A DNA stretch of 40,000 nt from Vibrio gangliei (GCF_026001925.1 NZ_AP021871.1:6137-46136); one strand, 5' to 3'. Numbered from the stretch's first letter, positions 5,931 through 33,971 are shown. Translations and numbers: made by a program. Notes: generated by a model from the sequence alone, not told the origin.

Positions 5931-5946
5931 ATAATACTTGTATTAT
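5931..5946. promoter_or_regulatory. Palindromic operator ATAATACTTGTATTAT (perfect 7-2-7 inverted repeat)
   Basis: Perfect inverted repeat ATAATAC-NN-GTATTAT. Overlaps a -35-like TTGTAT of the protease promoter. Confidence 0.6.
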
Positions 5947-5960
5947 TCCCTGTGTGAATT

Positions 5961-5976
5961 ATAATACTTGTATGTT
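5961..5976. promoter_or_regulatory. Second operator copy (14/16 match), ATAATACTTGTATGTT
   Basis: Lies 30 bp centre-to-centre from the first copy. Overlaps a TATAAT hexamer (5960-5965) 31 nt upstream of the protease ATG. Confidence 0.5.
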
Positions 5977-5995
5977 GTGAAAAAGGAATTAAATC

Positions 5996-7294
5996 ATGAA
6001 AAAACTTACAACCTCCGTTACTCTTTTATCTGCGTTAGTTTCTGCTAATGTTTTTGCAGTTGATACCAGTTTGGTTTATCACAACGTAGACCGTGTTGAT
6101 CAAGATAATATTGTTATTGCGAATAGTGATTCTTCTGCATACTGCACCGGTACGGTAATTGGCGGGAAGTGGGTTATCACTGCTGCTCACTGTAATCAAG
6201 GCTCGTCCGTTGATGGCGTGTATCAAACGTTGAGTGTAAAAAAATCTAATATTCCGACTGAATATACTGAGTACAAAGCTCAGACTGAAAACCCTGACTC
6301 AACCGGTTATAGCTCACCAATGCTTGATGTTGCCGTTTGGGAATTGGATGATGCACTAAAGCACTCTACATTCGCCCCAATTTCCAACGTTACATTGTCA
6401 GATAATGATTTACTTCGACTATATGGATTTGGTCAAACCAATCCAGAATTAAACTATATAGAACAACGTACATTGGCGAATTGGCACTACGGGAATTGGG
6501 ATTTAGCTAATACCCCAAATGTCGAGGCTTGCACTATTGACGGTGCAACTCATGATGATGGCTATTGTGAAACGTTAGATCCAAATATGATGGTGACGTA
6601 TGAAATAAATCAGGGGCGAATCATTGATGGGGACTCTGGCGCAGCATTATTTAAAGATGGCTACATGGTTGGCATCTTACACTCATTATCACCATACGGC
6701 TTACAAGATGCGGGGCACTCATATCACGCAGATAGCGGTACAACTGAGGGGGTCAATGTTAGTGACATTGTTAGCTCAGATGCTGACTTGGATTCAATGA
6801 ACGGTAGCTATGCGAATCGCATGGATTATGCAGCCACGCAAAACTTTTTATTAGATAATATTAACGCATGGAACTACGCATCTTGGGTAAAAGTAAATAG
6901 CTCAAATGCTGTGACTGTTAAGATTCAATCGCTTCATAACTCAACAGTAAATTTATTAAACACGATTACCACGACTGGTGATGCTGATGTAGATACCAGC
7001 ACTATTGCTTGTTTCTCTCCTGAACACGACAACAACACTGCCGAGCACCATAGTGCCGATAGTGTACAGCCCTTTGATGTGTGTTCGTTAAGTGTCACGA
7101 GTAATGGTGGTGAGGGTCAAATTCTATTAGGTGATAATCAAGTTATCCATGTGAATAAATGGGATGTAGATTCTGTTGATCCTGAAGAACCCGACAATGG
7201 CGGTGAAAGTTCAGGTGGCTCTAGCGGTGGTTCTCTTGGTGTGTTTGGTTTATTAGGCTTACTGGGATTAGGAATAGCTAGAAGAAGAAAATAA
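5996..7294 (+). CDS. Secreted trypsin-like (S1) serine protease with GlyGly-CTERM sorting signal (VesB-like)
   Basis: Sec signal peptide. Catalytic motifs are WVITAAHC (His), DVAVWEL (Asp) and GDSGAAL (Ser). The C-terminus GGSSGGSLGVFGLLGLLGLGIARRRK matches the GlyGly-CTERM / rhombosortase pattern. Confidence 0.8.
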   Translation: MKKLTTSVTLLSALVSANVFAVDTSLVYHNVDRVDQDNIVIANSDSSAYCTGTVIGGKWVITAAHCNQGSSVDGVYQTLSVKKSNIPTEYTEYKAQTENPDSTGYSSPMLDVAVWELDDALKHSTFAPISNVTLSDNDLLRLYGFGQTNPELNYIEQRTLANWHYGNWDLANTPNVEACTIDGATHDDGYCETLDPNMMVTYEINQGRIIDGDSGAALFKDGYMVGILHSLSPYGLQDAGHSYHADSGTTEGVNVSDIVSSDADLDSMNGSYANRMDYAATQNFLLDNINAWNYASWVKVNSSNAVTVKIQSLHNSTVNLLNTITTTGDADVDTSTIACFSPEHDNNTAEHHSADSVQPFDVCSLSVTSNGGEGQILLGDNQVIHVNKWDVDSVDPEEPDNGGESSGGSSGGSLGVFGLLGLLGLGIARRRK

Positions 7295-7308
7295 ATATTC
7301 CACGAAAA

Positions 7309-7336
7309 GGGCGTGATTTATTCACGCCCTTTTTTA
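7309..7336 (+). terminator. Rho-independent terminator after the protease gene
   Basis: GGGCGTGA / TCACGCCC stem followed by a TTTTTT run. Confidence 0.8.
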
Positions 7337-7355
7337 TTACAAAAAATTCAACTTT

Positions 7356-7367
7356 AACCGCCTAAAT
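7356..7367 (+). promoter_or_regulatory. Shared upstream motif AACCGCCTAAAT
   Basis: One of 6-7 copies of (T)TTAACCRYCTAAWT. Lies 64 nt (motif end to start codon) upstream of the 7431 start. Confidence 0.45.
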
Positions 7368-7430
7368 GTGATTCCAGTCTCGAACTGTGCAACTTTTAAT
7401 GTTCCATTTATAAAAACAGGAGAATGGAAC

Positions 7431-7943
7431 GTGAAAACAAATAAATATTTGCTTGCTGTACTGATAGCTCTTTCCTCTGTCGGGGTTGTTAATGCTGCCG
7501 ATGTAAGCACTATGCCTATCCAATCGAACAACCATACGAGCATTAGCGTTTCAAGTGATGCGAGTAATAGCAATTGGAGTAAATCACCCAAACCAACATC
7601 GACGGACACCTACCAGTGGAAATCGGTTTATTCAGGTTCGGCAAAAGATACAGTAGCTATAGGTAGCAATTCAAAATTTGTATCTGTCCAATTGGCTGGT
7701 AAGTCTGCAAAAACTTATGCGGTAGATCCAAGCTCAAGTAGCTATACGCTGGATACTTTTAGTTATAAGTCTTATACAAGCAATGGTAACATAGGAGGAT
7801 GTGCGCAAGGGAGCTGTGGAGGGCTAACAGAAACAACAACCACAGTGATATTAAAGAAAGAAGGTAATTCGGTTTCGTCTTACACCACATCTGGCTCATA
7901 CAGTTATAAATCACCAATGATTACAAAAGTTTTGGTGATGTAA
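7431..7943 (+). CDS. Secreted protein, paralogue A of the QSNNH family (unknown function)
   Basis: GTG start 7 nt after AGGAGAA. Signal peptide ends VNA. Mature N-terminus is ADVSTMPIQSNNHTSISVSSDASNSNWSKSPKPTS. The upstream part of the track ORF (7368) is rejected. Confidence 0.65.
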   Translation: MKTNKYLLAVLIALSSVGVVNAADVSTMPIQSNNHTSISVSSDASNSNWSKSPKPTSTDTYQWKSVYSGSAKDTVAIGSNSKFVSVQLAGKSAKTYAVDPSSSSYTLDTFSYKSYTSNGNIGGCAQGSCGGLTETTTTVILKKEGNSVSSYTTSGSYSYKSPMITKVLVM

Positions 7944-7947
7944 ATCA

Positions 7948-7973
7948 AATGAGGCGAGCTCAATCGCCTCATT
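7948..7973 (+). terminator. Hairpin after paralogue A (weak terminator, no T-run)
   Basis: AATGAGGCGA / TCGCCTCATT, a 10-bp stem with a 6-nt loop. Confidence 0.4.
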
Positions 7974-8012
7974 CAATTGTTCAATTTGTTGAGAAAAATT
8001 AATGCGGTTACA

Positions 8013-8300
8013 ATGAACAAATCTAAATTTACCTTCATGCCTCTTGCATTGTTTTTGGGGGCTGCAAATGCTGCTGACATAAGCAATATGACTGTTCAAT
8101 CGAATAATCATTCGAGCGATATGCCATCAGGCTCTAAATGCGGTGATTATGTAATGTCCGGCAACAAAACAAGAGTTAATGTTTATTGTATGGGACAAAG
8201 CGTTCGAAATGGCTGCCCAAAGGGGTTCACTCATCGAAACTTCGGATATTTTGAAGCCGGTGGAGGCGAACGGAAATATGTTTGGTGTACGAAAAACTGA
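8013..8300 (+). CDS. Small Cys-rich secreted protein, paralogue B of the QSNNH family
   Basis: Signal peptide ends ANA. Mature N-terminus ADISNMTVQSNNHSS, followed by an unrelated Cys-rich C-terminal part of about 60 aa. Confidence 0.55.
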   Translation: MNKSKFTFMPLALFLGAANAADISNMTVQSNNHSSDMPSGSKCGDYVMSGNKTRVNVYCMGQSVRNGCPKGFTHRNFGYFEAGGGERKYVWCTKN

Positions 8301-8341
8301 GATAACTTCTAATTGATTAATATCGACAGACATGTTCAGCG

Positions 8342-8359
8342 TTATTACCACGGTAATAA
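8342..8359. promoter_or_regulatory. 18-bp perfect palindrome TTATTACCACGGTAATAA (copy 1), core of a 28-bp hairpin
   Basis: An identical 18-mer recurs at 34053-34070. Here it also forms the stem CAGCGTTATTACC / GGTAATAACGCTG downstream of paralogue B, and ends 9 nt before the GACCACCTAAAA motif. Confidence 0.5.
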
Positions 8360-8368
8360 CGCTGATTT

Positions 8369-8380
8369 GACCACCTAAAA
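8369..8380 (+). promoter_or_regulatory. Shared upstream motif GACCACCTAAAA
   Basis: Variant copy of the AACCRYCTAAWT motif, 60 nt (motif end to start codon) upstream of the 8440 start. Confidence 0.4.
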
Positions 8381-8439
8381 ATGATCATATTTTCACAGTG
8401 AATACAATGTAACCTCTCATAATAAATAGGGGCTACATA

Positions 8440-8988
8440 ATGAAAAAATTCCTCTCTGTAATCATCGCAATTTGCGTTGGAAGTTCGGCCTATGCTGCCG
8501 ATATTGAATCAATGCCAACACAAAGCAATAATCATACAAATATTAGTGTTTCTGCGAATACAAGCGAAAGCAACTGGAAGAAGTCACCAAAACCCACCAG
8601 TAAAAATAATGGCGGTGTATGGGGCACTAGCACTGCAAACAGTCAATCCGCTTCATTTCCATCAGGGGCAAAAGCCGTTTCAATTATCACGGCTTACTCT
8701 AAAAATGCAGATAATAGTTATGCTTCAAATTTGCAACCATACTCCCAAGCCTTTTCTGGCACCTTCGCAGTACCAACATCAGGAACAAAAACCTACACAG
8801 TAGGCACTATGAGATATGCGGTTTGCTCAGGTGGTGCTCATGGTGGTGCATCATGCACTCAAAAAAGTATCGATTGTAAGGTTTCCGTATCTTCAACACG
8901 AATAAATCTGATTGGTAATGCGAATACAGGTTTGAGCGGAACCAAGTATTGCTTCCCAAATATCAGGGTTGTGACTTATTACCGATAA
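8440..8988 (+). CDS. Secreted protein, paralogue C of the QSNNH family (unknown function)
   Basis: Signal peptide ends AYA. Mature N-terminus is ADIESMPTQSNNHTNISVSANTSESNWKKSPKPTS. The C-terminal region is unrelated to paralogues A and B. Confidence 0.65.
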   Translation: MKKFLSVIIAICVGSSAYAADIESMPTQSNNHTNISVSANTSESNWKKSPKPTSKNNGGVWGTSTANSQSASFPSGAKAVSIITAYSKNADNSYASNLQPYSQAFSGTFAVPTSGTKTYTVGTMRYAVCSGGAHGGASCTQKSIDCKVSVSSTRINLIGNANTGLSGTKYCFPNIRVVTYYR

Positions 8989-9013
8989 GTTCCACTTCGG
9001 GTTAAACGTGGAT

Positions 9014-9025
9014 AACCACCTAATT
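9014..9025 (+). promoter_or_regulatory. Shared upstream motif AACCACCTAATT
   Basis: Copy of the AACCRYCTAAWT motif, 63 nt (motif end to start codon) upstream of the first gene of the mating-pair-formation operon. Confidence 0.45.
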
Positions 9026-9053
9026 TTGCCCCGAATTCAATCTACAAATAACC

Positions 9054-9087
9054 TATCGCCATGTTTTATCACATGGCGATTTTTTTT
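9054..9087 (+). terminator. Strong intrinsic terminator-like hairpin plus T8 run abutting the 9088 start codon
   Basis: ATCGCCATG / CATGGCGAT 9-bp stem with an 8-nt loop, then TTTTTTTT, then ATG. Confidence 0.7.
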
Positions 9088-9399
9088 ATGAAAAGAACAG
9101 CAATATCGAGTGGTTTGCTTTTTCTTTTGCTATCGGCACCGGCATTAGCAATGAGCAGCAATAACTCAAAAGAACCTGACATTATCCGCGAGCGGATGGG
9201 GTTAGAAGTGATTGAGTCACAACTTGGCAAAATCATTGAGCACAGTGAAAGTTTAAAAACATACTCCGATCAGTCAGCTAACCGAAAATTTAATTACCAA
9301 GCCTTTGAGATTCAAATCAAGAATCTTCAAGACCAAATAACCGAGTACCTTGAGCACCCTCCATTGCCGCGAGGCGTTGATGCGCTTCAGGAGAAATAA
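9088..9399 (+). CDS. Secreted small protein at the RAQPRD-family position of MPF-G transfer modules
   Basis: Signal peptide MKRTAISSGLLFLLLSAPALA. The C-terminal PPLPRGVD sits where family members carry RAQPRD. The track start at 9061 lies inside the terminator hairpin and is rejected. Confidence 0.45.
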   Translation: MKRTAISSGLLFLLLSAPALAMSSNNSKEPDIIRERMGLEVIESQLGKIIEHSESLKTYSDQSANRKFNYQAFEIQIKNLQDQITEYLEHPPLPRGVDALQEK

Positions 9400-9401
9400 C
9401 T

Positions 9402-9635
9402 ATGTCAAAGACTGTTGATGCTTGGAATGAAACTGTAGTTGGCCTTGCTAGCTCAGACACTATCGCAACAATCATCGGGCTTACATACTTTGGAGGAATG
9501 CTTTTGTTAGGAGCGTACTTATTTAGTGGCATGTTTGATTCATACAAGAAGAAAACTCTGACACAAAATGAGGCCATGTGGTACTTGATTCGCTACTTCA
9601 CTTTATTGATTTTCACTACATATTATTTTTTATAA
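9402..9635 (+). CDS. Small two-TM membrane protein (TIGR03758 / DUF3262 position)
   Basis: 77 aa with two hydrophobic helices and a good AGGAG RBS. Assignment is from synteny only. Confidence 0.45.
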   Translation: MSKTVDAWNETVVGLASSDTIATIIGLTYFGGMLLLGAYLFSGMFDSYKKKTLTQNEAMWYLIRYFTLLIFTTYYFL

Positions 9636-9645
9636 GGCATTAATA

Positions 9646-10020
9646 ATGAAAGCAATTATTAACAAATCTCAATCAATCCTAAGAGGTGTCTGTATTGGAC
9701 TTTATGCCTCTATATCAACAAGCTCGTTTGCTGCTGATTTGCCAACTATTGATATTCAAGGTGGTGGTTCAACTGACTACGTTGCAACTACAAAAAACAT
9801 CATTTGGAGCCTATTAGCTTTGGGCGCAATGATTGTCGTTGCAAAACTATTCTTTTCTGCGGTCGATGGCGTATTAACAAAATTCAACGAATGGAAGCAA
9901 AAGCAAGCCACTATTGCTGAGCTTATTGGGATGGTGCTGTTAGCGGTTGGCCTATTAATGGGCGGTGTATTCTTACTAACGCAGCTAAGTGACTCACTAG
10001 GTTTAGATTTCTCATTCTAA
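9646..10020 (+). CDS. Membrane protein, candidate conjugative pilin-like subunit (TIGR03745 / PFL_4702 position)
   Basis: Signal peptide ending SFA, followed by two TM helices. The VirB2/TraA-like architecture and the synteny both fit. Confidence 0.5.
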   Translation: MKAIINKSQSILRGVCIGLYASISTSSFAADLPTIDIQGGGSTDYVATTKNIIWSLLALGAMIVVAKLFFSAVDGVLTKFNEWKQKQATIAELIGMVLLAVGLLMGGVFLLTQLSDSLGLDFSF

Positions 10021-10034
10021 GGGAAAGTTAAAGC

Positions 10035-10436
10035 ATGGCAGATGAAGAACAAACCATTCAAGTGATTTTAGACAACCTAGATGAAGCGCCACCAATCTTA
10101 AAGGGATTAAGTGGTACGGAGTTTGGGTTGCTATGCGCATCAAGTGTAGGGGTATCGGCAATTATAGGGGCGTTAATCTTATTTTTTGTTAACCCAACCT
10201 ACTCAATACTTGGGCTTGTTATTGGTAGTGGGGCGGGCTTCATCATTGCATGGAAATTAGCTGGCTATATCGGTGTAAAGAAGCAAGGAACTCCAAGCTA
10301 TCTTTTTTGGGGGTTAATTATGAGGCACGTACAGACAAAAGGGATAAACCTTTTATTCACTCGCCTAAAAGTGAATTTCGGATTTATACCAACTCAAATC
10401 TGGGACAATTGCTCACATAAAGATGGTGAAAAATAA
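10035..10436 (+). CDS. Membrane protein (TIGR03750 position)
   Basis: 133 aa with two adjacent TM helices. Assignment is from synteny only. Confidence 0.45.
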   Translation: MADEEQTIQVILDNLDEAPPILKGLSGTEFGLLCASSVGVSAIIGALILFFVNPTYSILGLVIGSGAGFIIAWKLAGYIGVKKQGTPSYLFWGLIMRHVQTKGINLLFTRLKVNFGFIPTQIWDNCSHKDGEK

Positions 10437-10438
10437 CA

Positions 10439-11119
10439 ATGACAAATTCAAACTCAAATAAAAAAGAGAAGTTCAATTTAAAGGATGTGTTTTCGTTTAG
10501 GTTTCGTTCGTTACCGAAGCGCTATTACAAAGCAGAAAAGGAAACAGAGGCACATATCTGGACTCTTAGAGGCGTGGGTTTAGGTTTATTTGTGATCATA
10601 ATGGGCTGCCTATATGCGATAGGCCAAATGCCATCGCAAATCCCTTTGTACCAAACCCCAAACCTAGAAACCGGTTCAACGCGAAAAATTCAAGACGTAC
10701 CGCCTTATGCCGTTTACAGCACGGCTTTGTATTTATGGCAGACGATAAATAAAGCAGACAACTTGGCTGTTGATTACCCGAAAAATATTACCCGCTACGG
10801 GAATTATATTGCACCTGAGTTCCAGAAGGTTTTATTGAAAAACTTCAATGCAGAGCGCGGGGAAAAAACCAACGTTGAACGCAGAGTTAATGAAAAAACA
10901 GGCACCACATGGACTGAAGATAACCGAATCATAAACCTAGGTAATAAAAAATGGGTTGTGTATTTGGATATAACCATCACGGAGCGATTGAATAGCCAAG
11001 TGATTAGAAACTCAAGTTTTCGCTACCCGATATTAGTTCAGCAAGTTGATTTCGATCCTGCAACTAACCCAACAGGTATGCAGTTAATTGGTTACTACGG
11101 CAATGTTGAGCGTCTATAA
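10439..11119 (+). CDS. Single-TM transfer protein (TIGR03746 position)
   Basis: 226 aa, with N-terminal TM GVGLGLFVIIMGCLYAIG and a periplasmic domain. Assignment is from synteny. Confidence 0.45.
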   Translation: MTNSNSNKKEKFNLKDVFSFRFRSLPKRYYKAEKETEAHIWTLRGVGLGLFVIIMGCLYAIGQMPSQIPLYQTPNLETGSTRKIQDVPPYAVYSTALYLWQTINKADNLAVDYPKNITRYGNYIAPEFQKVLLKNFNAERGEKTNVERRVNEKTGTTWTEDNRIINLGNKKWVVYLDITITERLNSQVIRNSSFRYPILVQQVDFDPATNPTGMQLIGYYGNVERL

Positions 11120-11129
11120 GGAAGAACAA

Positions 11130-20690: not shown

Positions 20691-21122
20691 ATGACTGAGA
20701 ATGCCCAAAAAAATGCAAAACCTTTTTCTCAAACGTTTTTTCATGGAACCAAAGCAGATCTTAAATTGGGAGATCTTATAGAAACAGGGTTTAATTCAAA
20801 TTTTGGACAAAATAATAAGGCTAAGTATATATTCTTGACAGCTACACTAGATGCTGCCATTTGGGGAGCAGAGCTTGCCCTAGGTAATGGTCGCGAAAGA
20901 ATTTATTTGGTTGAGCCAACAGGTCCAATTGAAAATGATCCTGACCTAACGGATAGAAAGTTCCCAGGGAATCCAACCATGTCATATCGTTCAACCCATT
21001 CATTTAAAGTTGTAGGTGAAGTATCAAGCTGGCAGGGTCATTCATTAGAGCAAGTTAAAGCAATGAAAGATGGTTTAAATAAACTACATGAACAGGGCAT
21101 TAACTCTTTAAATGAAATCTAA
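20691..21122 (+). CDS. arr: Rifampin ADP-ribosyltransferase (Arr family)
   Basis: FFHGTKADLKLGDLI ... AAIWGAELA ... IYLVEPTGPIENDPDLTDRKFPGNPTMSYRS closely parallels Arr-2 as I recall it. About 143 aa, with RBS AGGAAAA. Confidence 0.85.
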   Translation: MTENAQKNAKPFSQTFFHGTKADLKLGDLIETGFNSNFGQNNKAKYIFLTATLDAAIWGAELALGNGRERIYLVEPTGPIENDPDLTDRKFPGNPTMSYRSTHSFKVVGEVSSWQGHSLEQVKAMKDGLNKLHEQGINSLNEI

Positions 21123-21230
21123 CAAGTCGGTGCACATGACTGCTAACACGTCACTCGGTTTGCTCTGCCTTCGGCAGTTTAGCAAACCATCGTGCCTTAG
21201 TTTGCGCAGCATGTGACCTAGGCGTTAACC
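21117..21230 (+). other. attC of the arr cassette
   Basis: ATCTAAC overlaps the stop codon; the site runs to GTTAACC. Confidence 0.65.
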
Positions 21231-21244
21231 CCTAAGGAAGTATC

Positions 21245-21718
21245 GTGAAACTATCACTAATGGCAGCAATTTCGAAGAATGGAGTTATCGGAAATGGCCC
21301 AGATATTCCATGGAGTGCCAAAGGGGAACAATTACTCTTCAAAGCGATTACCTATAATCAGTGGCTTTTGGTAGGCCGAAAGACTTTCGAGTCAATGGGG
21401 GCTTTACCCAACCGAAAATATGCCGTTGTAACTCGTTCAAGCTTCACTTCCAGTGATGAGAATGTATTGGTATTTCCATCTATCGATGAAGCGCTAAATC
21501 ATCTGAAGACGATAACGGATCATGTGATTGTGTCTGGTGGTGGTGAAATATACAAAAGCCTGATCGATAAAGCTGATACTTTACATATTTCAACAATCGA
21601 CATTGAGCCAGAAGGTGATGTCTATTTTCCAGAAATCCCCGGTAGTTTTAGGCCAGTTTTTAGCCAAGACTTCGTGTCTAACATAAATTATAGTTACCAA
21701 ATCTGGCAAAAGGGTTAA
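21245..21718 (+). CDS. dfrA: Trimethoprim-resistant dihydrofolate reductase, DfrA1 family (dfrA1/dfrA15-like)
   Basis: GTG start. [67 protein letters not shown]... is near-identical to DfrA1-group sequences from memory. Confidence 0.92.
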
Positions 21719-21816
21719 CAAGTGGCAGCAACTGACCGCCAAAAGTGTCACTTGTTTTGCCAAAAAGCCGGCAAAACAAGCGCCAATTTTGTCGGCAGCT
21801 GTGCCAGGCGTTAGAC
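21713..21816 (+). other. attC of the dfrA cassette
   Basis: GGTTAAC overlaps the stop codon; the site runs to GTTAGAC, immediately before the aadA start context GTTAGACATCATGAGGGA. Confidence 0.7.
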
Positions 21817-21819
21817 ATC

Positions 21820-22617
21820 ATGAGGGACTCAGTGACCGCCGAAATTTCGACGCAACTATCCAAGGTGCTTAGTGTTATCGAGCACCATCTGGAACCGACG
21901 TTGCTTGCCGTACATTTGTACGGCTCCGCAGTGGATGGCGGCCTGAAGCCATACAGTGATATTGATTTGCTGGTTACTGTGACCGCAAGGCTTGATGACA
22001 CAACGCGGCGAGCTTTGTTCAACGATCTTTTGGAGGTTTCGGCTTTCCCAGGCGAGAGTGAGATTCTCCGCGCTATAGAAGTCACCATTGTCGTGCACGA
22101 AGACATTATGCCGTGGCGTTATCCAGCCAAGCGCGAACTGCAATTTGGAGAATGGCAGCGCAATGACATTCTTGCGGGTATCTTCGAGCCAGCCACGATC
22201 GACATCGATCTGGCTATCTTGCTAACGAAAGCGAGAGAACATAGCGTGGCTTTGGTAGGTCCGGCGGCGGAGGAACTCTTTGATCCAGTTCCTGAACAAG
22301 ATCTAATCAAGGCGCTGAATGAAACCTTGAAGCTATGGAACTCGCAGCCCGACTGGGCCGGCGATGAGCGAAATGTAGTGCTTACGTTGTCCCGCATTTG
22401 GTACAGCGCAGCAACTGGTAAAATCGCGCCGAAGGATGTCGCTGCCAACTGGGCAATGGAACATCTACCTGCCCAGCATCAGTCTGTCTTGCTTGAAGCT
22501 AGACAGGCTTATCTTGGGCAAGAGGAAGATCGCTCGGTCTTGCGCGCAGATAAGTTGGAAGAATTTATTCACTTCATGAAAAGCGAGATCACCAAGGTGC
22601 TCGGCAATGATGTCTAA
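21820..22617 (+). CDS. aadA: Aminoglycoside (3'')(9) adenylyltransferase, AadA family (streptomycin/spectinomycin)
   Basis: MRDSVTAEISTQLSKVLSVIEHHLEPTLLAVHLYGSAVDGGLKPYSDIDLLVTV... is colinear with AadA1. The track start at 21745 reads through the attC and is rejected. Confidence 0.92.
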   Translation: MRDSVTAEISTQLSKVLSVIEHHLEPTLLAVHLYGSAVDGGLKPYSDIDLLVTVTARLDDTTRRALFNDLLEVSAFPGESEILRAIEVTIVVHEDIMPWRYPAKRELQFGEWQRNDILAGIFEPATIDIDLAILLTKAREHSVALVGPAAEELFDPVPEQDLIKALNETLKLWNSQPDWAGDERNVVLTLSRIWYSAATGKIAPKDVAANWAMEHLPAQHQSVLLEARQAYLGQEEDRSVLRADKLEEFIHFMKSEITKVLGNDV

Positions 22618-23674: not shown

Positions 23675-25842
23675 GTGCGACCTGAAGTCGTATGAAGCGT
23701 TGTTCACCACGATAAGAGTGGACCATCTGTATCACCAGATGACCCTAGGATTCTGAATAAAGCAGCGAATCCGACAATGTAACGAAACTCGGTTGTTAGA
23801 CTGAGTGGGAACTGAATCGTGAGAGAACGTTCCTCCTGATAACCACAAATCGGGTAAGTGCTAGGGTGTCAGTATGATGAACGTAAGTGAATCCATGTAA
23901 GGCGCGTTATACGATGAAGCAGCGGAAGTGGTTTGTACGCTGTGGCCAAAAAGGCAATGAGAGCCGGAAAGAAGTTGGACAGTACTCTTTCGTGATCGAT
24001 GTGCTCTCCGCACTATAGTGGGCATCTAACCTGATATTTTGCGCGACATACGGAACAGGGTAAGCCTGTATATCTCCCTTCGGGAAAGCAGTCTGCGAAG
24101 ACTGCCGATAGGTATGCAGGTAAAGGAGGTTAGAAAAAGCAAATGCCACTTTGTAATGAAGTGGATACAGGTTTATATCTGGCGCGAAAGCGAGCTGACT
24201 TCTAACTGGTCTCCCGTTGCAAGATGATTTGAAGAACTTTATTTAAGGAGAAACGCAAATGGTGGCTTTATTAGAAGTTAGTGCCTCTCCTAACAGTATT
24301 CAATGGCAATCCATCGATTGGAAGGCTGTCGAGTTGCACGTATTAAAGCTTCAAATGCGCATTGCAAAAGCAACCCGAGAGGGAAAACACAGTAAAGCGA
24401 GAGCTTTGCAGTGGATCTTAACACACTCAAGATCAGCTAAATTACTGGCTGTGAAGCGAGTGTCTCAAAACAAAGGCAGTAAGACACCCGGAATAGATGG
24501 AGTCATCTGGAATACAGATGCTCGTCGAATGACCGCAGTAGATCAATTGAATCGTAAAGGTTATCGAGCCAAACCACTCAGACGCATCTACATCCCGAAA
24601 AAGAACGGCAAACTTAGACCTCTAGGCATTCCATGCATGATAGATAGAGCGCAACAGGCGCTGTATTTACTTGCTTTGGAGCCGATATCGGAAACGATAG
24701 CTGATCCTAACAGCTACGGTTTTCGTCCGAATCGCAGTACTGCTGACGCTATAGCACAATGCTTTAAATGTTTGTGTCTTAAGCGCTCAGGTAAATGGGT
24801 TTTGGAGGGGGATATTAAAGCTTGCTTCGACAAAATCGGGCATGAATGGCTAATTGAAAATGTTCAAATAGACAAACGAATGCTAAAGCAGTGGCTAGGC
24901 TCAGGCTATATTGATAAAGGTTTGTTTTACCGAACATCGGAGGGAACTCCGCAAGGCGGAATTATCTCACCAACACTTATGTTACTGACACTTGCGGGCT
25001 TAGAAAAGCTTGTAAAGGAAGTAGACAAGAGCTCGGGAGAACGAGTTAACTTCATCGGTTATGCGGATGATTTTATAATAACCGGATCATCAAAAGATGT
25101 TCTTATCAATGAAATCAAACCTCGGTTAATTGGTTTTCTAAAAGAAAGAGGGTTGGCACTCTCTGAAGAGAAAACACACCTTACTCATATAGATGATGGC
25201 TTTGACTTTTTAGGTTTTAACCTCAGGAAGTACAAAGGTAAATTGCTCATCAAACCGAGTAAAACTAACGTTCTCTCTTTCTTGGGAAACTTGCGTGAAC
25301 TCATCAAGAAGCACGCAACAATGCCAGTCAATGATCTTATCAGACTATTGAATCCTAAATTGAAAGGTTGGGCGAATTATTATCGTCACTGCGTTGCAAA
25401 ACGAACTTTCGGCTATCTCGGTCATCAAATCTTCTGGCTTCTGTGGCGATGGGCGGTTAGACGCCATCCTACTAAGCCAAAAGACTGGGTCAGGCGCAAA
25501 TACTACATGAATAGAAGTGGTGGTTGGCAATTTCACGGTTGGCAGAAAATCGCGAACATGGACTGTCATTACAACTTAGTTCAAATAGCGAAAACGCCGA
25601 TTAAAAGACATGTGAAGATCCGAAGTGCGGCTACACCGTTCGACCCCCAATACCAAGATTACTTGGCAAAGAGGAAATCGAAAAAGGAAAGTCGTCACTC
25701 ATGGTTGGAGCCTGCTTTAACTGCTATCTAGGTTGCTGGGTAACGTAATACGCCTTAGTGGAGGCTTGAGCCGTATGCAGTGAAAGTTGCACGTACGGTT
25801 CTTAGGAGGGCGGCACTTGGTAACAGGTGTCGCCTATCCGAC
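23675..25842 (+). mobile_element. Bacterial group II intron (about 2.17 kb) with intron-encoded RT/maturase
   Basis: 5' GTGCG at 23675. Domain V GAGCCGTATGCAGTGAAAGTTGCACGTACGGTTC lies at about 25767-25800. The domain VI stem GGCGGCAC / GTGTCGCC has a bulged A 7 nt from a 3' end ...TCCGAC. Confidence 0.85.
24259..25731 (+). CDS. Group II intron reverse transcriptase/maturase (no endonuclease domain evident)
   Basis: RT motifs include RRIYIPKKNGKLRPLGIP and YADDFII. A maturase (X) domain follows. The protein ends without an HNH/En region. Confidence 0.9.
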   Translation: MVALLEVSASPNSIQWQSIDWKAVELHVLKLQMRIAKATREGKHSKARALQWILTHSRSAKLLAVKRVSQNKGSKTPGIDGVIWNTDARRMTAVDQLNRKGYRAKPLRRIYIPKKNGKLRPLGIPCMIDRAQQALYLLALEPISETIADPNSYGFRPNRSTADAIAQCFKCLCLKRSGKWVLEGDIKACFDKIGHEWLIENVQIDKRMLKQWLGSGYIDKGLFYRTSEGTPQGGIISPTLMLLTLAGLEKLVKEVDKSSGERVNFIGYADDFIITGSSKDVLINEIKPRLIGFLKERGLALSEEKTHLTHIDDGFDFLGFNLRKYKGKLLIKPSKTNVLSFLGNLRELIKKHATMPVNDLIRLLNPKLKGWANYYRHCVAKRTFGYLGHQIFWLLWRWAVRRHPTKPKDWVRRKYYMNRSGGWQFHGWQKIANMDCHYNLVQIAKTPIKRHVKIRSAATPFDPQYQDYLAKRKSKKESRHSWLEPALTAI

Positions 25843-26878: not shown

Positions 26879-26886
26879 CCGAAACA

Positions 26887-28512: not shown

Positions 28513-28527
28513 TTTTAGGAGTTGGAC

Positions 28528-28695: not shown

Positions 28696-28816
28696 AAAAC
28701 TAGACCTATATGGAATTACTTTAAAGACTGAGGCAGCTACAAAACCATAACCCAAAGATAAGCAATGACAATTGATTTACTTTAAATGAAACATTAACTC
28801 TAAAGAGAGGAAAAGT

Positions 28817-29137
28817 ATGGATTTATATCAACTAGCAAAAATGAGTGATGCAGACATAGCGACATGGGTTCGCTCGAATGTAGATAATTTTTCGCTTATC
28901 GCTGATAGCGAATTAGAAAGCACTGTTTCAACACGTGACCATTGGGAGCAACGAGCAACCGAGTTGGCAAATGATGTTGGCGCACTATTAAATATCAATC
29001 TAGGGGAACACAGCAGCACAAACTGCCCTGTACAGAATGCCATTAACGCTGCTCGCAATGCCGCTCAAAAGAAAGCAAGAATCGAATCAATAAAAGCACG
29101 AATAGGCGGTGTATTGGACGGGGAAAGCCTTACTTAG
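28817..29137 (+). CDS. Hypothetical protein
   Basis: RBS GAGAGGAAAA. 106 aa, helical and acidic, with no motif recognised. Confidence 0.5.
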   Translation: MDLYQLAKMSDADIATWVRSNVDNFSLIADSELESTVSTRDHWEQRATELANDVGALLNINLGEHSSTNCPVQNAINAARNAAQKKARIESIKARIGGVLDGESLT

Positions 29138-29156
29138 TGTTGTTTTTAAAGAAGTT

Positions 29157-29185
29157 GCTATGGATACACCCCTGTAATCCATAGC
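29157..29185. terminator. Hairpin between convergent genes
   Basis: GCTATGGAT / ATCCATAGC 9-bp stem with an 11-nt loop. T-runs are weak. Confidence 0.45.
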
Positions 29186-29198
29186 ACAATCGGCCTCA

Positions 29199-29672
29199 TT
29201 ATTTATGAGAGATAAGCTTTTGAATTGAAATGCCAGTATGCAGGTGGACATATATAACAAATCGAGCTGGAACGGATTCTAATTTTTCATACAACCCAAT
29301 CGCTACTTCATCAACGGCCAGCTTTTGTGCTAGCTCATTTAATGAATCTACCTTTAGCAAAGTCATTAAGTTTTCAACAAATTTACCACCGCTAGGAAAC
29401 TCCAAACCTAATGCGTTTAACCCTGTGGCAATATTTGATTTGCTTCCTTTAAACACCTTTTGCTTACCGGTTATGGCAGCAAAATTACCATTATCCATCA
29501 GCGCAACTTTGTAATCATAAGCAACCATATTATTGATTTGCGCGGCTGTTGGGACGTTTGATGAGGCAAGAAGTGTCTTTCTATCACCACCGAAAGCATG
29601 AAGAAGAACATCCTCAAGTGGAAGCGTTTCAGCACCATCTATAACCACATCTTTCTGAGATTGTAATGCCAT
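29199..29672 (-). CDS. Candidate transcriptional regulator: unknown N-terminal domain plus C-terminal HTH-like segment
   Basis: SLNELAQKLAVDEVAIGLYEKLESVPARFVIYVHLHTGISIQKLI looks like an XRE-type HTH. The gene is divergent from the transfer operon, with tandem operator copies in its upstream region. Confidence 0.45.
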   Translation of the reverse strand: MALQSQKDVVIDGAETLPLEDVLLHAFGGDRKTLLASSNVPTAAQINNMVAYDYKVALMDNGNFAAITGKQKVFKGSKSNIATGLNALGLEFPSGGKFVENLMTLLKVDSLNELAQKLAVDEVAIGLYEKLESVPARFVIYVHLHTGISIQKLISHK

Positions 29673-29711
29673 AAAGCTTCAAATCCTCCAAGTACAAGAC
29701 ATTGAATAAGA

Positions 29712-29727
29712 ATAACACAAGTATTAT
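29712..29727. promoter_or_regulatory. Operator copy ATAACACAAGTATTAT (15/16)
   Basis: Matches ATAATACAAGTATTAT with one mismatch. Lies in a divergent intergenic region. Confidence 0.5.
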
Positions 29728-29743
29728 ACAATACAAGTTTGAT
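29728..29743. promoter_or_regulatory. Degenerate operator copy ACAATACAAGTTTGAT (13/16), directly abutting the previous one
   Basis: Arranged in tandem with 29712-29727. Confidence 0.35.
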
Positions 29744-29767
29744 AATTGTGTGCCATGTATGTCATTT

Positions 29768-29779
29768 AACCATCTAAAT
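29768..29779 (+). promoter_or_regulatory. Shared upstream motif AACCATCTAAAT
   Basis: Copy of the AACCRYCTAAWT motif, 71 nt (motif end to start codon) upstream of the 29850 start. Confidence 0.4.
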
Positions 29780-29849
29780 TCGGTGATACACATAATGAAT
29801 ATTAATTTAGTCCGAACGACCGAACATTTTGAATCATTACGGATTGACT

Positions 29850-31217
29850 ATGGCTAAATATCACCGACTCACCTTAATTAGCTTATTGCTCTTTAACTCA
29901 AGCGCATTTGCCGCAAACTCAACCGATCTTGGCTATATGATGTCAAGGTCAACCTCATCTTCTGCAGCCGAACGAGAAGCCTTGGAAATGCTAATTGTTA
30001 ATCCAAGAGAAAACCCAACGCCAATACTTGAAGTGGACGGGTATAAACCCCGCTCTCGATGGGATGAACTGGCTAAAGCTAAAGTTGACACGTTTGGACA
30101 GTGTGGAAAGTTCGACCCCAATCTATCGGTACTGAACTCATTCAACGATGGCAACTTAAATGTCCTTTTTAATAACGTAATTACTTCCGCTGTAACCTCT
30201 GTTCAGGGCTTTGCTGGCCAGCTAATGAAGGAAATGAACCCAGGATTCTATGAATTTTTAGAAAATGGAATCGATCTGGGTTATAACGACTACCTTAGTT
30301 CCTTACAGTCCTGTGAGGAGATGCAAAAGTTCATTAAGAATGCACCAGAGAACATCATGAAGTTCACTAGCCAGCAAGAGGAAATGGCGAAATATAGTGA
30401 GCAAGGAAACGTTGATATTATTGATCTAACCAGAAGTGGCTCAAGACTTAATGGTGACGCAGGTGTTACCGGTGTGACTGGTAATAAATTCGGTGGTGCC
30501 GGTCAGAGACCACTAAAGGTCGTTGCGCAGACTTCATTGGCTGGCTACTGCGGATTAACCGAAACAACATCAGGTGATTGCTCCGATGTGGTCGGTACCA
30601 ACGTGACTGGTTCTGGTGGTACATCATCTACAGCTATCAAAAAAATATTTGCAACAAATCAAGAGGCAGAAGATTTTGCAGTGGAACTGTTAGGTGAGAC
30701 AAATTATCGCACCTGTTCTGGCTGCGAAACCATTCGCACAACTCCACCTCAGTCAATCGCTCAACTTGTCGAAAAGGAATCTACCGAGCTAGTTCAAAAG
30801 CTTACAGAGTTAACGCAGGACAGAAATATCACACAAGAAAAACTTGATGATGTTAGCGCCCCAAATTATCAAATTACAGAAGCGACAATCACAGCTTTAA
30901 GGGCAGAGCAAACAGACTCAAGACAGGTGTTTATTGAACGTTTGGCGTTTGATGTGGCCAGTTCAAAAACTATCGACAAGATAATCGCTACTCGCCAAAT
31001 TCTGTTAACTGGTCGCTCTAATGCAAATATCACCGGCAATGAAGCCATGATGATGGAGGTGAATAGCAAGTTAAATGCCCTTACTGAGCAAATCAATAAC
31101 TTCCAGCAAGAAATTGCATTGCGTGACTCCATCAATAGCAATACGCGCATTATCTTGAATGAAAGAAGATTCCATTCAAGAGGCACCAAAAATGAAAACG
31201 CATTATCCATCAAGTAA
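29850..31217 (+). CDS. Periplasmic transfer protein (TIGR03755 / PFL_4711 position)
   Basis: The ATG at 29850 gives signal peptide MAKYHRLTLISLLLFNSSAFA. About 455 aa. Synteny between the TraU-like and TraG_N-like genes supports the call. Confidence 0.55.
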   Translation: MAKYHRLTLISLLLFNSSAFAANSTDLGYMMSRSTSSSAAEREALEMLIVNPRENPTPILEVDGYKPRSRWDELAKAKVDTFGQCGKFDPNLSVLNSFNDGNLNVLFNNVITSAVTSVQGFAGQLMKEMNPGFYEFLENGIDLGYNDYLSSLQSCEEMQKFIKNAPENIMKFTSQQEEMAKYSEQGNVDIIDLTRSGSRLNGDAGVTGVTGNKFGGAGQRPLKVVAQTSLAGYCGLTETTSGDCSDVVGTNVTGSGGTSSTAIKKIFATNQEAEDFAVELLGETNYRTCSGCETIRTTPPQSIAQLVEKESTELVQKLTELTQDRNITQEKLDDVSAPNYQITEATITALRAEQTDSRQVFIERLAFDVASSKTIDKIIATRQILLTGRSNANITGNEAMMMEVNSKLNALTEQINNFQQEIALRDSINSNTRIILNERRFHSRGTKNENALSIK

Positions 31218-31229
31218 GAGATAAAGATC

Positions 31230-32867
31230 ATGTTAACCAATGAAGCAACAGACCTGTTTTTTATCCCGTTGGGTAACTACATGTCATCACAGATATGGGA
31301 TTTATTGCTGCAGACTAAGCTCTATATAATTCCATTCATTATCGTGCTAATCGTTTGTTTTAACGAGGCCAGAGCCGCAGGCGCGGATGAAGGGACGCCC
31401 GCAATACAAACCTTTAGAAAGTTTGAAGCAAAAGCATGGGGTATGTTTGTAATAATTCTATTTGCTGTACAGCCATTCTCCTTTTCATCGAAAGAAACAT
31501 TTAGAGATATAACCTACAAAAGTTATTCATGCTTAGCTGGTGGATTAGGTACGTACTTAACGGTCGATCAGCTATCAATAAACCCAACAATTCAATCTAT
31601 TGAGGGGGCGAATCCATCACTATGGAATGCGCTCATGAATATGTTTTCAACAGGGGTAACAAACGCCGCAATCCATGCTATTCCTTGCGATGTTCAAGAG
31701 GGTGAAAATAGCTTACGTGTAGCTTTAACCAATGCACAAAGCGCGGTGCCTGAAGGCGACCTTTATCAAACTGCACTTGAATATAATAAGCAATGTTACG
31801 CACCGGCTATTAAACGTTTGGGTGATTTATCACAAATGCAAAATCAGCAATCTGAAATAGATATGTCAGACCTGTCTTTCAATAGTCAAGCAATTAGAAC
31901 CGCGTTATCAGGAATGAATATTGACGGATATGAAGAAAAGCTTACCGCTACCGTTCAATTGCCCGAATATTCACAAGAGGGCTTCCTATGGGGCTATAAG
32001 CCAGCTACCGTTGATTGCAGCGTTTTAGGAAGCAATTTACACTCCGATTTGGTTGAATACACAAAAACAGGAAATTACGCAAAAGACTTTGCCGCTATTA
32101 ACCGCAGATCAACATCAAGTGATACTGAAAATGACAATAGCAATGCAAATGTTTTGTTTAATAACGCCATTCATAAAGATGGCAGAACATTGACTGATGC
32201 AGCCCTGAGTAGCCTAGATTCTACTGTGAACGGTAATGCTGCAGGTTGGCTTTTAACAACCTTTAATCCTTCTGGGTTGGTATTAGAAGGAACATCTGGT
32301 AGTGGCAGTATATTAGAACGCTCAGCGAATGCTATACGAAATAGTGTAACAACAGCATCTAACTTGTTAGGTGTGGCAATAGACTCAACAAAGGTTCTTC
32401 AGTACCAAATTACCGCTCCCCTTGTTATTTCAATAGCCAAAATGCTTTTGATTATTGCATTCCCATTAATGATGTTGATGACAGGATTTAATCGGAACCT
32501 ATTACTAGCTTCCACAATAGGATATGTGGCGATAGAGTTTTCTAAATTTACATTTGAACTTGGGGCGTATTTAGATGAATCACTCACATCATTCTTATTC
32601 AATGTAACGTACCTTAAATTACCAGAAGGCATGTCCGTTTCAATGATGCAAACAATTTCAACATCCATAAATTTAATAGGTCAAATGGCTAATTATAGCC
32701 TTGTTCTTATATGGTTTGTCTTTGTGGGCTGGATGGGTGTAAAACTATTTGGAAGCTTATCTATGAGTGATAGCGCGGGACAACAAGCAGCATCAACCGC
32801 TGGGTCATTCGCATCATCAGTTATATCTTCAGGCGTTAGCGTAGCTAAAAAAGCAGCAGGTCGTTAG
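31230..32867 (+). CDS. TraG_N-type polytopic membrane protein (mating-pair stabilisation family)
   Basis: 545 aa with multiple TM helices at both ends and a large central periplasmic region. This is the usual last gene of the MPF-G block. Confidence 0.55.
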   Translation: MLTNEATDLFFIPLGNYMSSQIWDLLLQTKLYIIPFIIVLIVCFNEARAAGADEGTPAIQTFRKFEAKAWGMFVIILFAVQPFSFSSKETFRDITYKSYSCLAGGLGTYLTVDQLSINPTIQSIEGANPSLWNALMNMFSTGVTNAAIHAIPCDVQEGENSLRVALTNAQSAVPEGDLYQTALEYNKQCYAPAIKRLGDLSQMQNQQSEIDMSDLSFNSQAIRTALSGMNIDGYEEKLTATVQLPEYSQEGFLWGYKPATVDCSVLGSNLHSDLVEYTKTGNYAKDFAAINRRSTSSDTENDNSNANVLFNNAIHKDGRTLTDAALSSLDSTVNGNAAGWLLTTFNPSGLVLEGTSGSGSILERSANAIRNSVTTASNLLGVAIDSTKVLQYQITAPLVISIAKMLLIIAFPLMMLMTGFNRNLLLASTIGYVAIEFSKFTFELGAYLDESLTSFLFNVTYLKLPEGMSVSMMQTISTSINLIGQMANYSLVLIWFVFVGWMGVKLFGSLSMSDSAGQQAASTAGSFASSVISSGVSVAKKAAGR

Positions 32868-32883
32868 ACTAGAGATAAATAAA

Positions 32884-32915
32884 AAGGGACGCAGATTTTC
32901 TGTGTCCCTTTATTT
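32884..32915. terminator. Bidirectional terminator
   Basis: AAGGGACGCA / TGTGTCCCTT stem flanked by an A-run and a T-run. Lies between convergent transcription units. Confidence 0.7.
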
Positions 32916-32943
32916 ACTAAAGCTAGATGTACAACCCAAAATG

Positions 32944-33108
32944 CTAATCCTCGTCAAATATATTAATAACATGGGATCGCCCATAGATTTTTTTGTTACG
33001 CTTTTTCTTGTAATAGTCTTTCGCTCCAATTGCATGGATTAGAACCAAAAGAGACAGCGGGAAAAACAGCACAAAAAGCAATAAGTTTAAATACTTTTTC
33101 TTTTTCAT
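32944..33108 (-). CDS. 54-aa single-TM protein (not in the ORF track)
   Basis: MKKKKYLNLLLFVLFFPLSLLVLIHAIGAKDYYKKKRNKKIYGRSHVINIFDED. Starts 8 nt after the stop of the upstream minus-strand gene. Confidence 0.45.
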   Translation of the reverse strand: MKKKKYLNLLLFVLFFPLSLLVLIHAIGAKDYYKKKRNKKIYGRSHVINIFDED

Positions 33109-33115
33109 ATCTTTC

Positions 33116-33337
33116 TCATTTCTTGTTTTTCATTACACGAAGTAGTTTTGCAACCTCTGCTTGCTTATACTTTGGGGGTAAAGATTCAACCCAGTTCAAA
33201 TGCGCTTCTTCACGGCTAACACCGGCTGGTAATTTGAAAGGATAACTATCGGTATAGTGCTTACCTTTCAACGCCTTTGCAAAGTAAAACGCAACATACA
33301 CACCACAAAGAAGACCAACTAACAAAAACTCATTCAT
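33116..33337 (-). CDS. Small N-terminally anchored membrane protein
   Basis: 73 aa with TM FLLVGLLCGVYVAFYFA. An operator copy lies 44 nt upstream. Confidence 0.5.
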   Translation of the reverse strand: MNEFLLVGLLCGVYVAFYFAKALKGKHYTDSYPFKLPAGVSREEAHLNWVESLPPKYKQAEVAKLLRVMKNKK

Positions 33338-33380
33338 AATACACCTTTAATAATTTAAGTCATTCATCAATACGCCAATT

Positions 33381-33396
33381 ATAATACAAGTATTAT
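33381..33396. promoter_or_regulatory. Palindromic operator ATAATACAAGTATTAT (perfect)
   Basis: Perfect 7-2-7 inverted repeat embedded in TATAAT-like hexamers on both strands. Confidence 0.6.
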
Positions 33397-33409
33397 AATT
33401 GCGCAATGG

Positions 33410-33943
33410 TTAACCTTGATTGATCTCACAATTTTCACGCCTGAAGCACACTAAACATTTGGCTGATTTTCTACATTTAGGCTTTTTTCCCTGTCTAATC
33501 ATATTGATATACGCAACCTCATTTTTGATTTTTCTATAAAGTGTAGCTGATGAATACGATAATTTAACGGGATATAACTCAGATTTTGTCACTAAATACC
33601 CACTGCTTACAGGGTAGCCTTGCTCCCTTGCTGTAATTGCGCTGGCATACATTTGCTTATCATCGGATGGATAGTGACCTTTATATCGAGACTTGTGCTC
33701 AACAAGAGTGTGCCGAAATAAAGAAGTCTTGAATATGAAATCCGGTTTAGAGCTGAGTTTATATTTGTGACTCAACAGAACGGGATGTTTATTGTCATCA
33801 ATATAGACAAGCTTCCCTCGGAATCCGAATTGTGTCATCGGGAGCGTTAATTTATAGATTTTGTTGAGCGCCCACCAACAAGCGGTTAATGCAGTCAACA
33901 GCAGAGAAGAAACCAACACTAAGTAAGAGATCTGATATTCCAT
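33410..33943 (-). CDS. Membrane-anchored PD-(D/E)xK nuclease, Cas4-like
   Basis: N-terminal TM YLVLVSSLLLTALTACWWAL. Nuclease motifs are KPDFIF (D), VEHKSR (ExK) and QMYASAI (QxxxY). The C-terminal CLVCFRRENC is a Cx2Cx5C Fe-S-type motif. The ATG at 33943 is preferred to the GTG at 33955. Confidence 0.7.
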   Translation of the reverse strand: MEYQISYLVLVSSLLLTALTACWWALNKIYKLTLPMTQFGFRGKLVYIDDNKHPVLLSHKYKLSSKPDFIFKTSLFRHTLVEHKSRYKGHYPSDDKQMYASAITAREQGYPVSSGYLVTKSELYPVKLSYSSATLYRKIKNEVAYINMIRQGKKPKCRKSAKCLVCFRRENCEINQG

Positions 33944-33955
33944 AAAAGTTCCCAC

Positions 33956-33971
33956 ATAATACTTGTATTAT
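33956..33971. promoter_or_regulatory. Palindromic operator ATAATACTTGTATTAT (perfect)
   Basis: On the minus strand it lies immediately downstream of TTGCAA-N17-TAAAAT and 13 nt upstream of the nuclease ATG. Confidence 0.6.

Follow-up and report, generated by a model that had tools for sequence, protein, structure and literature searches.

A probable repressor operator repeated at promoters of a Vibrio gangliei conjugative plasmid, and a candidate protein that may read it

Introduction

In the IncP-1 plasmids (RK2/RP4), KorA and KorB act on short palindromic operators that recur at many promoters, coincide in part with core promoter sequences and bring genes for transfer, maintenance and accessory functions under joint control. 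KorB is homologous to ParB, and a number of its sites exert their effect from a distance. The IncW plasmid R388 encodes ArdK, KorA and StbA, self-regulating repressors each of which shuts several dispersed promoters (Fernandez-Lopez et al. 2014, PMC3937220). From its own promoter, ArdK controls maintenance and establishment genes, including ssb and ardC, and a burst of transcription on entry has been predicted (PMC3937220). Here we describe a network from Vibrio gangliei which, by analogy, is probably of the ArdK/KorA/KorB kind functionally, with a new operator and a near-orphan candidate regulator. It lies on a plasmid-like contig of 118,436 bp (C3), bases 6137-46136 of which (GCF_026001925.1, NZ_AP021871.1) make up the 40,000-nucleotide stretch analysed here, the window. 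A 16-bp palindrome, ATAATACNNGTATTAT, recurs there and elsewhere on C3 at predicted promoters. We propose with moderate confidence that it is the dimer-bound operator of a plasmid-encoded repressor, most likely a self-repressing protein of 157 amino acids (aa) with a predicted helix-turn-helix (HTH).

As in R388, the sites of C3 extend over a psiA-ssb-radC region and further accessory units and include the promoter of the candidate regulator itself. Unlike in R388, the operator has a different sequence, the backbone combines a MobH relaxase with TIGR03755/TraU/DUF2859 genes of the integrative and conjugative element (ICE) type, the HTH of the candidate is C-terminal, behind an unrecognised domain, and the network is known from sequence alone. 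Homology of the 157-aa candidate to KorA, KorB or ArdK was not found in Pfam and NCBIfam scans, which gave Phage_CI_repr alone. The likeness to IncP-1 is that the palindromes repeat at many plasmid promoters and overlap predicted core elements; in contrast to the KorB case, a ParB-like domain was not found on C3, the par locus carries no site, and every site is promoter-proximal.

The palindrome and its distribution

The window contains three perfect copies of the palindrome (5931-5946, 33381-33396 and 33956-33971), against 0.00 expected from 100 dinucleotide-preserving shuffles. Near-perfect copies are found at 5961-5976 (two mismatches), 29712-29727 (one mismatch) and 29728-29743 (three mismatches). 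With up to three mismatches allowed there are 10 matches in the window versus 3.1 expected; the three-mismatch matches at 8531, 25075, 31138 and 33336 are at chance level and score below 10 bits on the position weight matrix (PWM). The central dinucleotide is AA or TT in every copy and flanking bases extend the dyad beyond 16 bp, so the motif is best written (T)ATAAYAC-WW-GTATTAT(A). Its best-conserved part is the invariant core ACWWGT. No Rfam family was detected at the operator sites, and a literature search found no paper on the operator sequence.

The remaining contigs of the genome, 2.60 Mb and 0.95 Mb, are two chromosomes (3.55 Mb in total). A genome-wide PWM scan found 12 sites in eight clusters on C3 (12067/12097, 35848/35864, 39517, 40092, 64171/64201, 73945/73961, 81056 and 108422 in C3 coordinates) and none scoring at least 19 bits on the chromosomes. 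On C3 itself no position scores between 10 and 19 bits. As a control for circularity the PWM was retrained on the six window sites alone: the six C3 sites that lie outside the window, and so were held out of the training, reach 16.9-26.9 bits, and the best chromosomal position reaches 18.2. All eight clusters are intergenic on a contig that is about 13% intergenic by crude open reading frame (ORF) calls (chance about 1e-7), and they lie 12-118 nt from start codons. Exact sites number nine in this genome and at most one in each of 400 other genomes of the family. Separately, a single chromosomal ATAACACAAGTATTAT is common to six of the eight genomes of one sister genus.

Repetition of an operator at many promoters of a plasmid, with no comparable chromosomal copies, is the pattern of a global plasmid repressor regulon. 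An earlier note on this DNA had tied four distant promoters into one repressor-controlled regulon, listing six palindrome copies, all of them intergenic and overlapping or abutting promoter hexamers. All six are where it placed them, three perfect and three near-perfect; all are intergenic, as part of the eight intergenic clusters, and the hexamer overlaps are present in the sequence, as predicted promoters. Two of the checks it named, a matrix scan of the whole genome and an assessment of intergenic enrichment, came out in its favour. Its repressor-regulon reading is supported by the confinement of the motif to the plasmid, by the intergenic promoter sites, by the palindrome being kept at orthologous promoters in two relatives with no more than 38-85% protein identity and by the two sites at the candidate's own promoter in two lineages. 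The extent needs correction: there are eight promoter regions plasmid-wide, not four, and they serve mainly accessory and leading-region units (psiA-ssb-radC, a umuD unit and small membrane proteins).

Predicted promoter architecture at the sites

Every copy contains or abuts a TATAAT-like hexamer, either as tATAAT at the 5' edge or as TAT-aat at the 3' edge. The promoter assignments that follow are predictions based on such matches, and two arrangements can be distinguished.

In the first, two copies are spaced 30 bp centre to centre. The distal copy provides TTGTAT as the predicted -35 element and, after a 16-bp spacer, the proximal copy provides (t/c)ATAAT as the -10. Between the end of the proximal copy and the ATG there are 16-21 nt, which include a Shine-Dalgarno sequence. 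This module precedes the protease gene of the window and, on the minus strand, an 84-aa membrane-protein gene (C3:63899-64153, with a GGAGG ribosome-binding site). The C3:64171/64201 pair therefore most likely serves the leftward 84-aa gene, not traI. The spacing is 30 bp at both genes of C3 and 30-33 bp at the orthologous or equivalent genes of its relatives, and in four pairs from three elements the proximal site lies 16-21 nt before the ATG. At the protease, the distal copy is the perfect one at 5931-5946 (26.6 bits), with TTGTAT at 5938-5943 as predicted -35, and the proximal copy is the one at 5961-5976 (14 of 16 positions, 20.7 bits), with tATAAT at 5960-5965 as predicted -10 and its end 19 nt from the ATG. 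The gene itself (5996-7294, plus strand) encodes a trypsin-like serine protease (Trypsin 1.3e-10) with a GlyGly-CTERM-like tail, the latter a weak match.

The second arrangement consists of single sites or 16-bp tandems in which the 3' end, GTATTAT followed by aat, makes a TATAAT. It is found upstream of the 73-aa, psiA-like 203-aa and 276-aa genes. In the TATTATAAT versions perfect -10 hexamers overlap on both strands, so one such site could shut both of the divergent 74-aa and 276-aa genes. In the window, the perfect 18-bp form TATAATACAAGTATTATA (33381-33396, 27.6 bits) lies 44 nt upstream of the gene for a 73-aa small membrane protein (33116-33337, minus strand), which is followed by a 54-aa ORF (32944-33108); on the minus strand the end of the site gives TAT-aat, a predicted -10. 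The perfect copy at 33956-33971 (28.8 bits) itself holds tATAAT. On the minus strand it directly follows TTGCAA-N18-AAAAAT, and 12 nt separate it from the downstream ATG (33943) of a gene (33410-33943, minus strand) for a Cas4-like PD-(D/E)xK nuclease with an N-terminal hydrophobic segment (Cas_Cas4 0.0047 and cas4_PREFRAN 3.5e-05, both below cutoff).

A tandem occupies the divergent region that separates the candidate regulator gene (29199-29672, minus strand) from a TIGR03755-like transfer gene (29829-31217, plus strand; TIGR03755 5.8e-65, below the curated cutoff), which heads the divergent operon. The copy at 29712-29727 (15 of 16 positions, 23.9 bits) lies 40 nt from the ATG of the regulator gene; the copy at 29728-29743 (13 of 16, 19.0 bits) abuts it, 16 bp centre to centre, and a minus-strand TATAAT spans the junction of the two. 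The TIGR03755-like gene has an upstream box of its own, TTTAACCATCTAAA, at 29765. The transfer operon more probably runs from this separate TTTAACCRYCTAAAT box adjoining the sites, and its membership of the regulon is uncertain. The grouping proposed in the earlier note, of the candidate regulator, the protease and the membrane nuclease unit, is supported.

Boxes of this type form a directional element, TTTA(A)CCRYCTAAAT, upstream of plus-strand transfer and pilus operons (window 3797, 7353 and 29765; C3 2217 and about 64222). In front of the TIGR03755-like and traI operons, palindrome pairs lie 6-22 nt upstream of the element. It may act as a promoter element that depends on an activator; the plasmid encodes an AcaB homolog.

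Outside the window, the copy at C3:108422 lies directly after the Rep3 initiator gene and 85 nt upstream of a 91-aa gene heading a unit whose end is umuD plus a truncated umuC. This copy is the centre of a perfect GC-clamped palindrome of 30 bp (C3:108416-108445) with T-runs on both sides (-23.9 kcal/mol, z = -7), which looks like a bidirectional terminator of rep doubling as an operator. Behind the 73945/73961 pair, the segment C3:74011-80587 resembles a leading region: it carries an SSB-like gene, three RadC-like JAB genes and many small ORFs, and its PsiA homolog is 75% identical to a protein matching PF06952.

Conservation in related elements

An exhaustive HMMER search among 1.8 billion representative proteins brought the family of the 157-aa protein to three members, the two homologs being 45% and 42% identical to it. 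Two relatives of the plasmid were available for comparison. In the more distant one (JBEVUE011946463.1, 86 kb of a 93-kb contig covered) the genes are arranged as on C3, and the backbone proteins share 30-76% identity with their C3 counterparts. Each of its four palindrome clusters occupies an orthologous promoter: a tandem pair before the regulator homolog, as on C3; a pair upstream of the protease ortholog (48% identity); a 30-bp pair in the interval that separates the Cas4-like ortholog from that of the 73-aa gene (82 aa, 38% identity); and a cluster between the orthologs of the 74-aa and 276-aa genes. As a background rate, about two chromosomal positions in 3.55 Mb reach 17 bits, and therefore about 0.05 chance sites would be expected in 86 kb. 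When the intergenic regions before the regulator and protease genes are aligned, the dyads stand out as islands of identity within flanking DNA that has diverged beyond alignment; in the 74/276-aa region, MAFFT did not bring the dyad of the distant relative into register.

The closer relative (ENA ERZ15271652 contig_1342, of which about 30 kb was read) encodes proteins 39-85% identical to those of C3. Its sites are a pair before the small membrane gene adjacent to traI, a site before psiA (after DUF2859), one in the 74/276-aa region and one before a further small gene. The 74/276-aa pair thus carries a site in all three elements. The Cas4-like gene differs in this respect: in the distant relative its ortholog (52% identity) is preceded by a different palindrome, two copies of AGTAATAATTACT (L181:5680-5730), not by this operator. 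From this comparison the promoter of the Cas4-like gene appears to have been rewired between operator families.

Other searches were negative. Megablast of the 29-34.5 kb part of the window against PLSDB gave no match, word- and pattern-based homolog and locus searches for the 157-aa and TIGR03755-like proteins found no relative, and an 18-mer scan of genome contigs returned merely single chance matches in unrelated phyla. In the closest PLSDB plasmid by relaxase, Shewanella xiamenensis pXY8M38-1 (44% identity over the N-terminal half), the motif was not found. Matches to the double-site pattern in genome and metagenome contigs were rejected as ORF-less tandem repeats or chance dyads near PadR-like and TetR-like genes, with no protein common with C3. 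Among unrelated metagenome contigs, near-identical AT-rich dyads (TTATAATACWWGTATTATAA) lie in tandem directly upstream of PadR-like and TetR-like genes (L154:1549-1582 and L140:1250-1297); operators of this kind seem to have evolved for regulators of other families too.

The candidate regulator

Among the first genes of the regulated units, only the 157-aa gene has a DNA-binding signature; PHROGs, PDB-sequence and Pfam scans detected no DNA-binding domain in the 73-, 74-, 84-, 91-, 203- and 276-aa proteins. The signature is a predicted C-terminal Cro/CI-type HTH (residues about 95-157), which matches the Pfam family Phage_CI_repr (PF07022) over residues 98-154 (E = 1.2e-4). In the AlphaFold2 model, helices are placed at residues 95-105, 111-118, 122-130, 136-146 and 150-154 (predicted local distance difference test, pLDDT, 64-87). 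Foldseek searches with this five-helix domain retrieved NHTF, SinR, C.AhdI, 434 repressor and Cro, and 186 CI (probability 0.94-0.99, target TM-score 0.5-0.65). In two lineages the tandem sites lie 40-56 nt upstream of the gene, and its slot between traU and the TIGR03755-like gene is the same in all three lineages that have it.

Cro/CI phage repressors (434, P22 c2, 186 CI) and the C-proteins of restriction-modification systems share with the C3 network dyads of 16-18 bp with half-sites about one helical turn apart, and tandem sites that imply cooperativity and self-regulation; the predicted five-helix HTH of the 157-aa protein may be of their fold. Unlike the phage repressors, the 157-aa protein has no S24 peptidase or known oligomerisation domain and is encoded within a transfer module, not a prophage. 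In 186 CI and lambda CI the HTH comes first, and a domain for oligomerisation or cleavage makes up the C-terminal part. The 157-aa protein does not have this layout: its predicted HTH occupies residues of about 95-157, behind an unrecognised domain (residues 1-94). PHROGs and PDB sequence searches with the protein gave no match.

Several observations weigh against the proposed reading. The PF07022 score exceeds its cutoff only marginally (22.8 versus 22.0 bits), the Foldseek E-values of the C-terminal domain are weak (0.06-0.5), and the N-terminal part of about 90 residues is a low-confidence model of an unrecognised domain. The predicted recognition helix starts with two acidic residues, and its conservation is poor when the two operator-sharing homologs are compared (DEVAIGLYEK versus DEKILSFMSL). 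Upstream of the third homolog (L183) there is no full operator. A generic sigma-70 scan did not call the operator-linked promoters, because TTGTAT fits TTGACA at only three of six positions.

With these points taken into account, the parts of the proposal differ in strength. From the enrichment, position and conservation of the palindrome, we consider it very probable that it is a functional protein-binding operator. That it acts as a repressor site is likely, given its overlap with predicted promoter hexamers. For the 157-aa protein as its binder, the self-directed sites and the predicted HTH-like fold tilt the balance slightly in favour.

Alternative explanations

The most serious alternative is that the operator is real and another plasmid-encoded protein binds it: Xre-121, the 347-aa protein at the ParB position, the product of the 74-aa or 276-aa gene, AcaB or an H-NS-like protein. 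We regard this as possible but rather unlikely. The poor conservation of the 157-aa recognition helix speaks for it in general, and KorB of the IncP plasmids, a partition protein with dispersed palindromic operators, provides a precedent. The 347-aa protein after ParA, however, has no ParB or HTH domain, and no site is found near the par locus. The 74/276-aa divergent pair is attractive because of its site in all three elements, yet a 59%-identical homolog of the 276-aa protein is present in a Vibrio metagenome-assembled genome contig without any site, and the 74-aa protein models (at low confidence) as long extended helices and not as a DNA-binding fold. AcaB belongs to a known activator type, and an H-NS-like protein is not expected to read a 16-bp palindrome.

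Xre-121, an Xre-type HTH protein of 121 aa (C3:63550-63915), has clear HTH_3 and HTH_19 matches and its gene adjoins the C3:64171/64201 pair. No homolog of it was found in the 86 kb covered of the distant relative, where the operator is kept, and Xre-121 co-occurs instead with a second palindrome family. This plasmid-specific palindrome, TTATTACC-NN-GGTAATAA, has seven perfect copies on C3 (window 8342-8359 and 34053-34070; C3 1531, 1568, 1605, 51771 and 75583) and a single copy in the ENA relative; it is missing from the chromosomes and from the distant relative. Xre-121 has the matching distribution, being present on C3 and in the ENA relative. It is therefore a candidate reader of the second palindrome and weakened as a reader of the main operator; the comparison of the three elements points to the former role.

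A chromosomal host transcription factor (for example Fur-, LexA- or GntR-like) could bind the sites, with the plasmid tapping into a host regulon, which we consider very improbable. The outer ATAAT...ATTAT arms resemble a Fur box, and umuD and psiA are related to SOS. Against this, a host regulator should have chromosomal targets and the two chromosomes have no comparable site; the motif also recurs in relatives from different samples. The Fur box is a 19-bp dyad, GATAAT-GAT-W-ATC-ATTATC, with arms 7 bp apart. It was rejected as an identity for the palindrome, in which the ATAAT/ATTAT arms are 6 bp apart, the central bases differ and chromosomal sites are missing. The LexA SOS box, a CTGT-N8-ACAG dyad present at chromosomal SOS genes, was likewise rejected, the motif core being ATAC-WW-GTAT without CTGT-N8-ACAG and without chromosomal copies.

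That the palindrome is no protein operator at all and serves as a symmetric bidirectional promoter element, an RNA hairpin or terminator, or a recombination site is suggested by the TATAAT on both strands of the 18-bp form and by the GC-clamped hairpin with U-runs at C3:108422, but is hardly credible given that the best-conserved core ACWWGT is outside any -10 hexamer, that the GC clamp occurs in one of 12 copies and a bare 7-bp A/U-rich stem is too weak for a terminator, that copies lie upstream of genes and not behind them, and that the fixed tandem spacings of 16 and 30 bp fit cooperative protein binding. A centromere reading was rejected, as there are no sites at the par locus.

Replicon context

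C3 encodes a Rep3-type initiator and a ParA-like gene that is 62% identical to the Pfam-annotated ParA-family gene of a relative. Its MobH/TraI_2 relaxase is followed by an AcaB homolog, and its ICE-type transfer genes (TIGR03755-like, TraU, DUF1525, DUF2859) are accompanied by a type IV pilus block. The order of relaxase and AcaB is like that of IncC plasmids and SXT, and the H-NS-like and Xre-type genes beside traI resemble Acr2 and Acr1. The palindrome is unlike the AcaCD boxes of the IncC/SXT group. In further contrast to that group, it overlaps predicted -10 hexamers, as a repressor site would, and the 157-aa candidate is no homolog of Acr1; the proteins that were scanned included no FlhDC-like activator.

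The resistance cargo comprises arr, dfr and aadA cassettes and a class A beta-lactamase. The cassettes, for an Arr rifampin ADP-ribosyltransferase, a DHFR and an AadA-type nucleotidyltransferase, are found beside integrase-like genes inside the transfer region (window 20691-22617), and the beta-lactamase gene lies apart from them (C3:82549-83397). Downstream of the cassettes is a group II intron (window 23723-25842; Rfam RF02012 76 bits, RF00029 65 bits) that includes a 490-aa ORF (24259-25731).

Discussion

Under the reading we favour, in which a plasmid-encoded repressor binds the palindrome, one repressor dimer would occupy each dyad, binding cooperatively at the 16-bp and 30-bp pairs and occluding -10 and -35 hexamers. 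Since the copies overlap the predicted -10, and distal paired copies also the predicted -35, bound repressor would exclude RNA polymerase. In an established host the accessory and leading-region units, along with the repressor's own gene, would be held at a low set point. About eight units would be held down in this way: the secreted protease, the Cas4-like membrane nuclease, three small membrane-protein genes, the psiA-ssb-radC leading region, the divergent 74-aa/276-aa pair, the rep-adjacent unit ending in umuD and truncated umuC, and the regulator gene. In a recipient free of repressor, the strong -10 promoters would fire in a burst until repressor builds up. Such an overshoot on transfer has been demonstrated experimentally for R388 (PMC3937220).

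A bolder version, which we think improbable but worth stating, is that the 157-aa protein founds a new repressor family whose conserved N-terminal domain (NMVxYDYKVAxLDNGNF...) senses the mating or DNA-entry state, the regulon being a conjugation-coupled establishment switch. Sensing of the mating state is proposed because the gene sits within the transfer operon, between traU and the TIGR03755-like gene. If this were true, a new recipient would at the same time express the anti-SOS and leading-region genes, a secreted protease of the rhombosortase type and a Cas4-like nuclease tethered to the membrane. Certain single sites would then silence a pair of back-to-back promoters, and one would also serve as the terminator of rep.

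The value of these results lies in annotation and testability and not in conceptual surprise, because such regulatory logic is expected of a conjugative plasmid. C3 is a multidrug-resistance conjugative plasmid of a marine bacterium, with a backbone (MobH relaxase plus ICE-type transfer genes) that has almost no characterised relatives. The operator, its approximately eight target promoters and the candidate repressor offer a direct way into the question of how this backbone keeps costly accessory and establishment genes silent. Being conserved, the operator can also serve as an inexpensive sequence marker when metagenomes are searched for other members of the plasmid lineage, and the system may reveal how the plasmid boots up following transfer.

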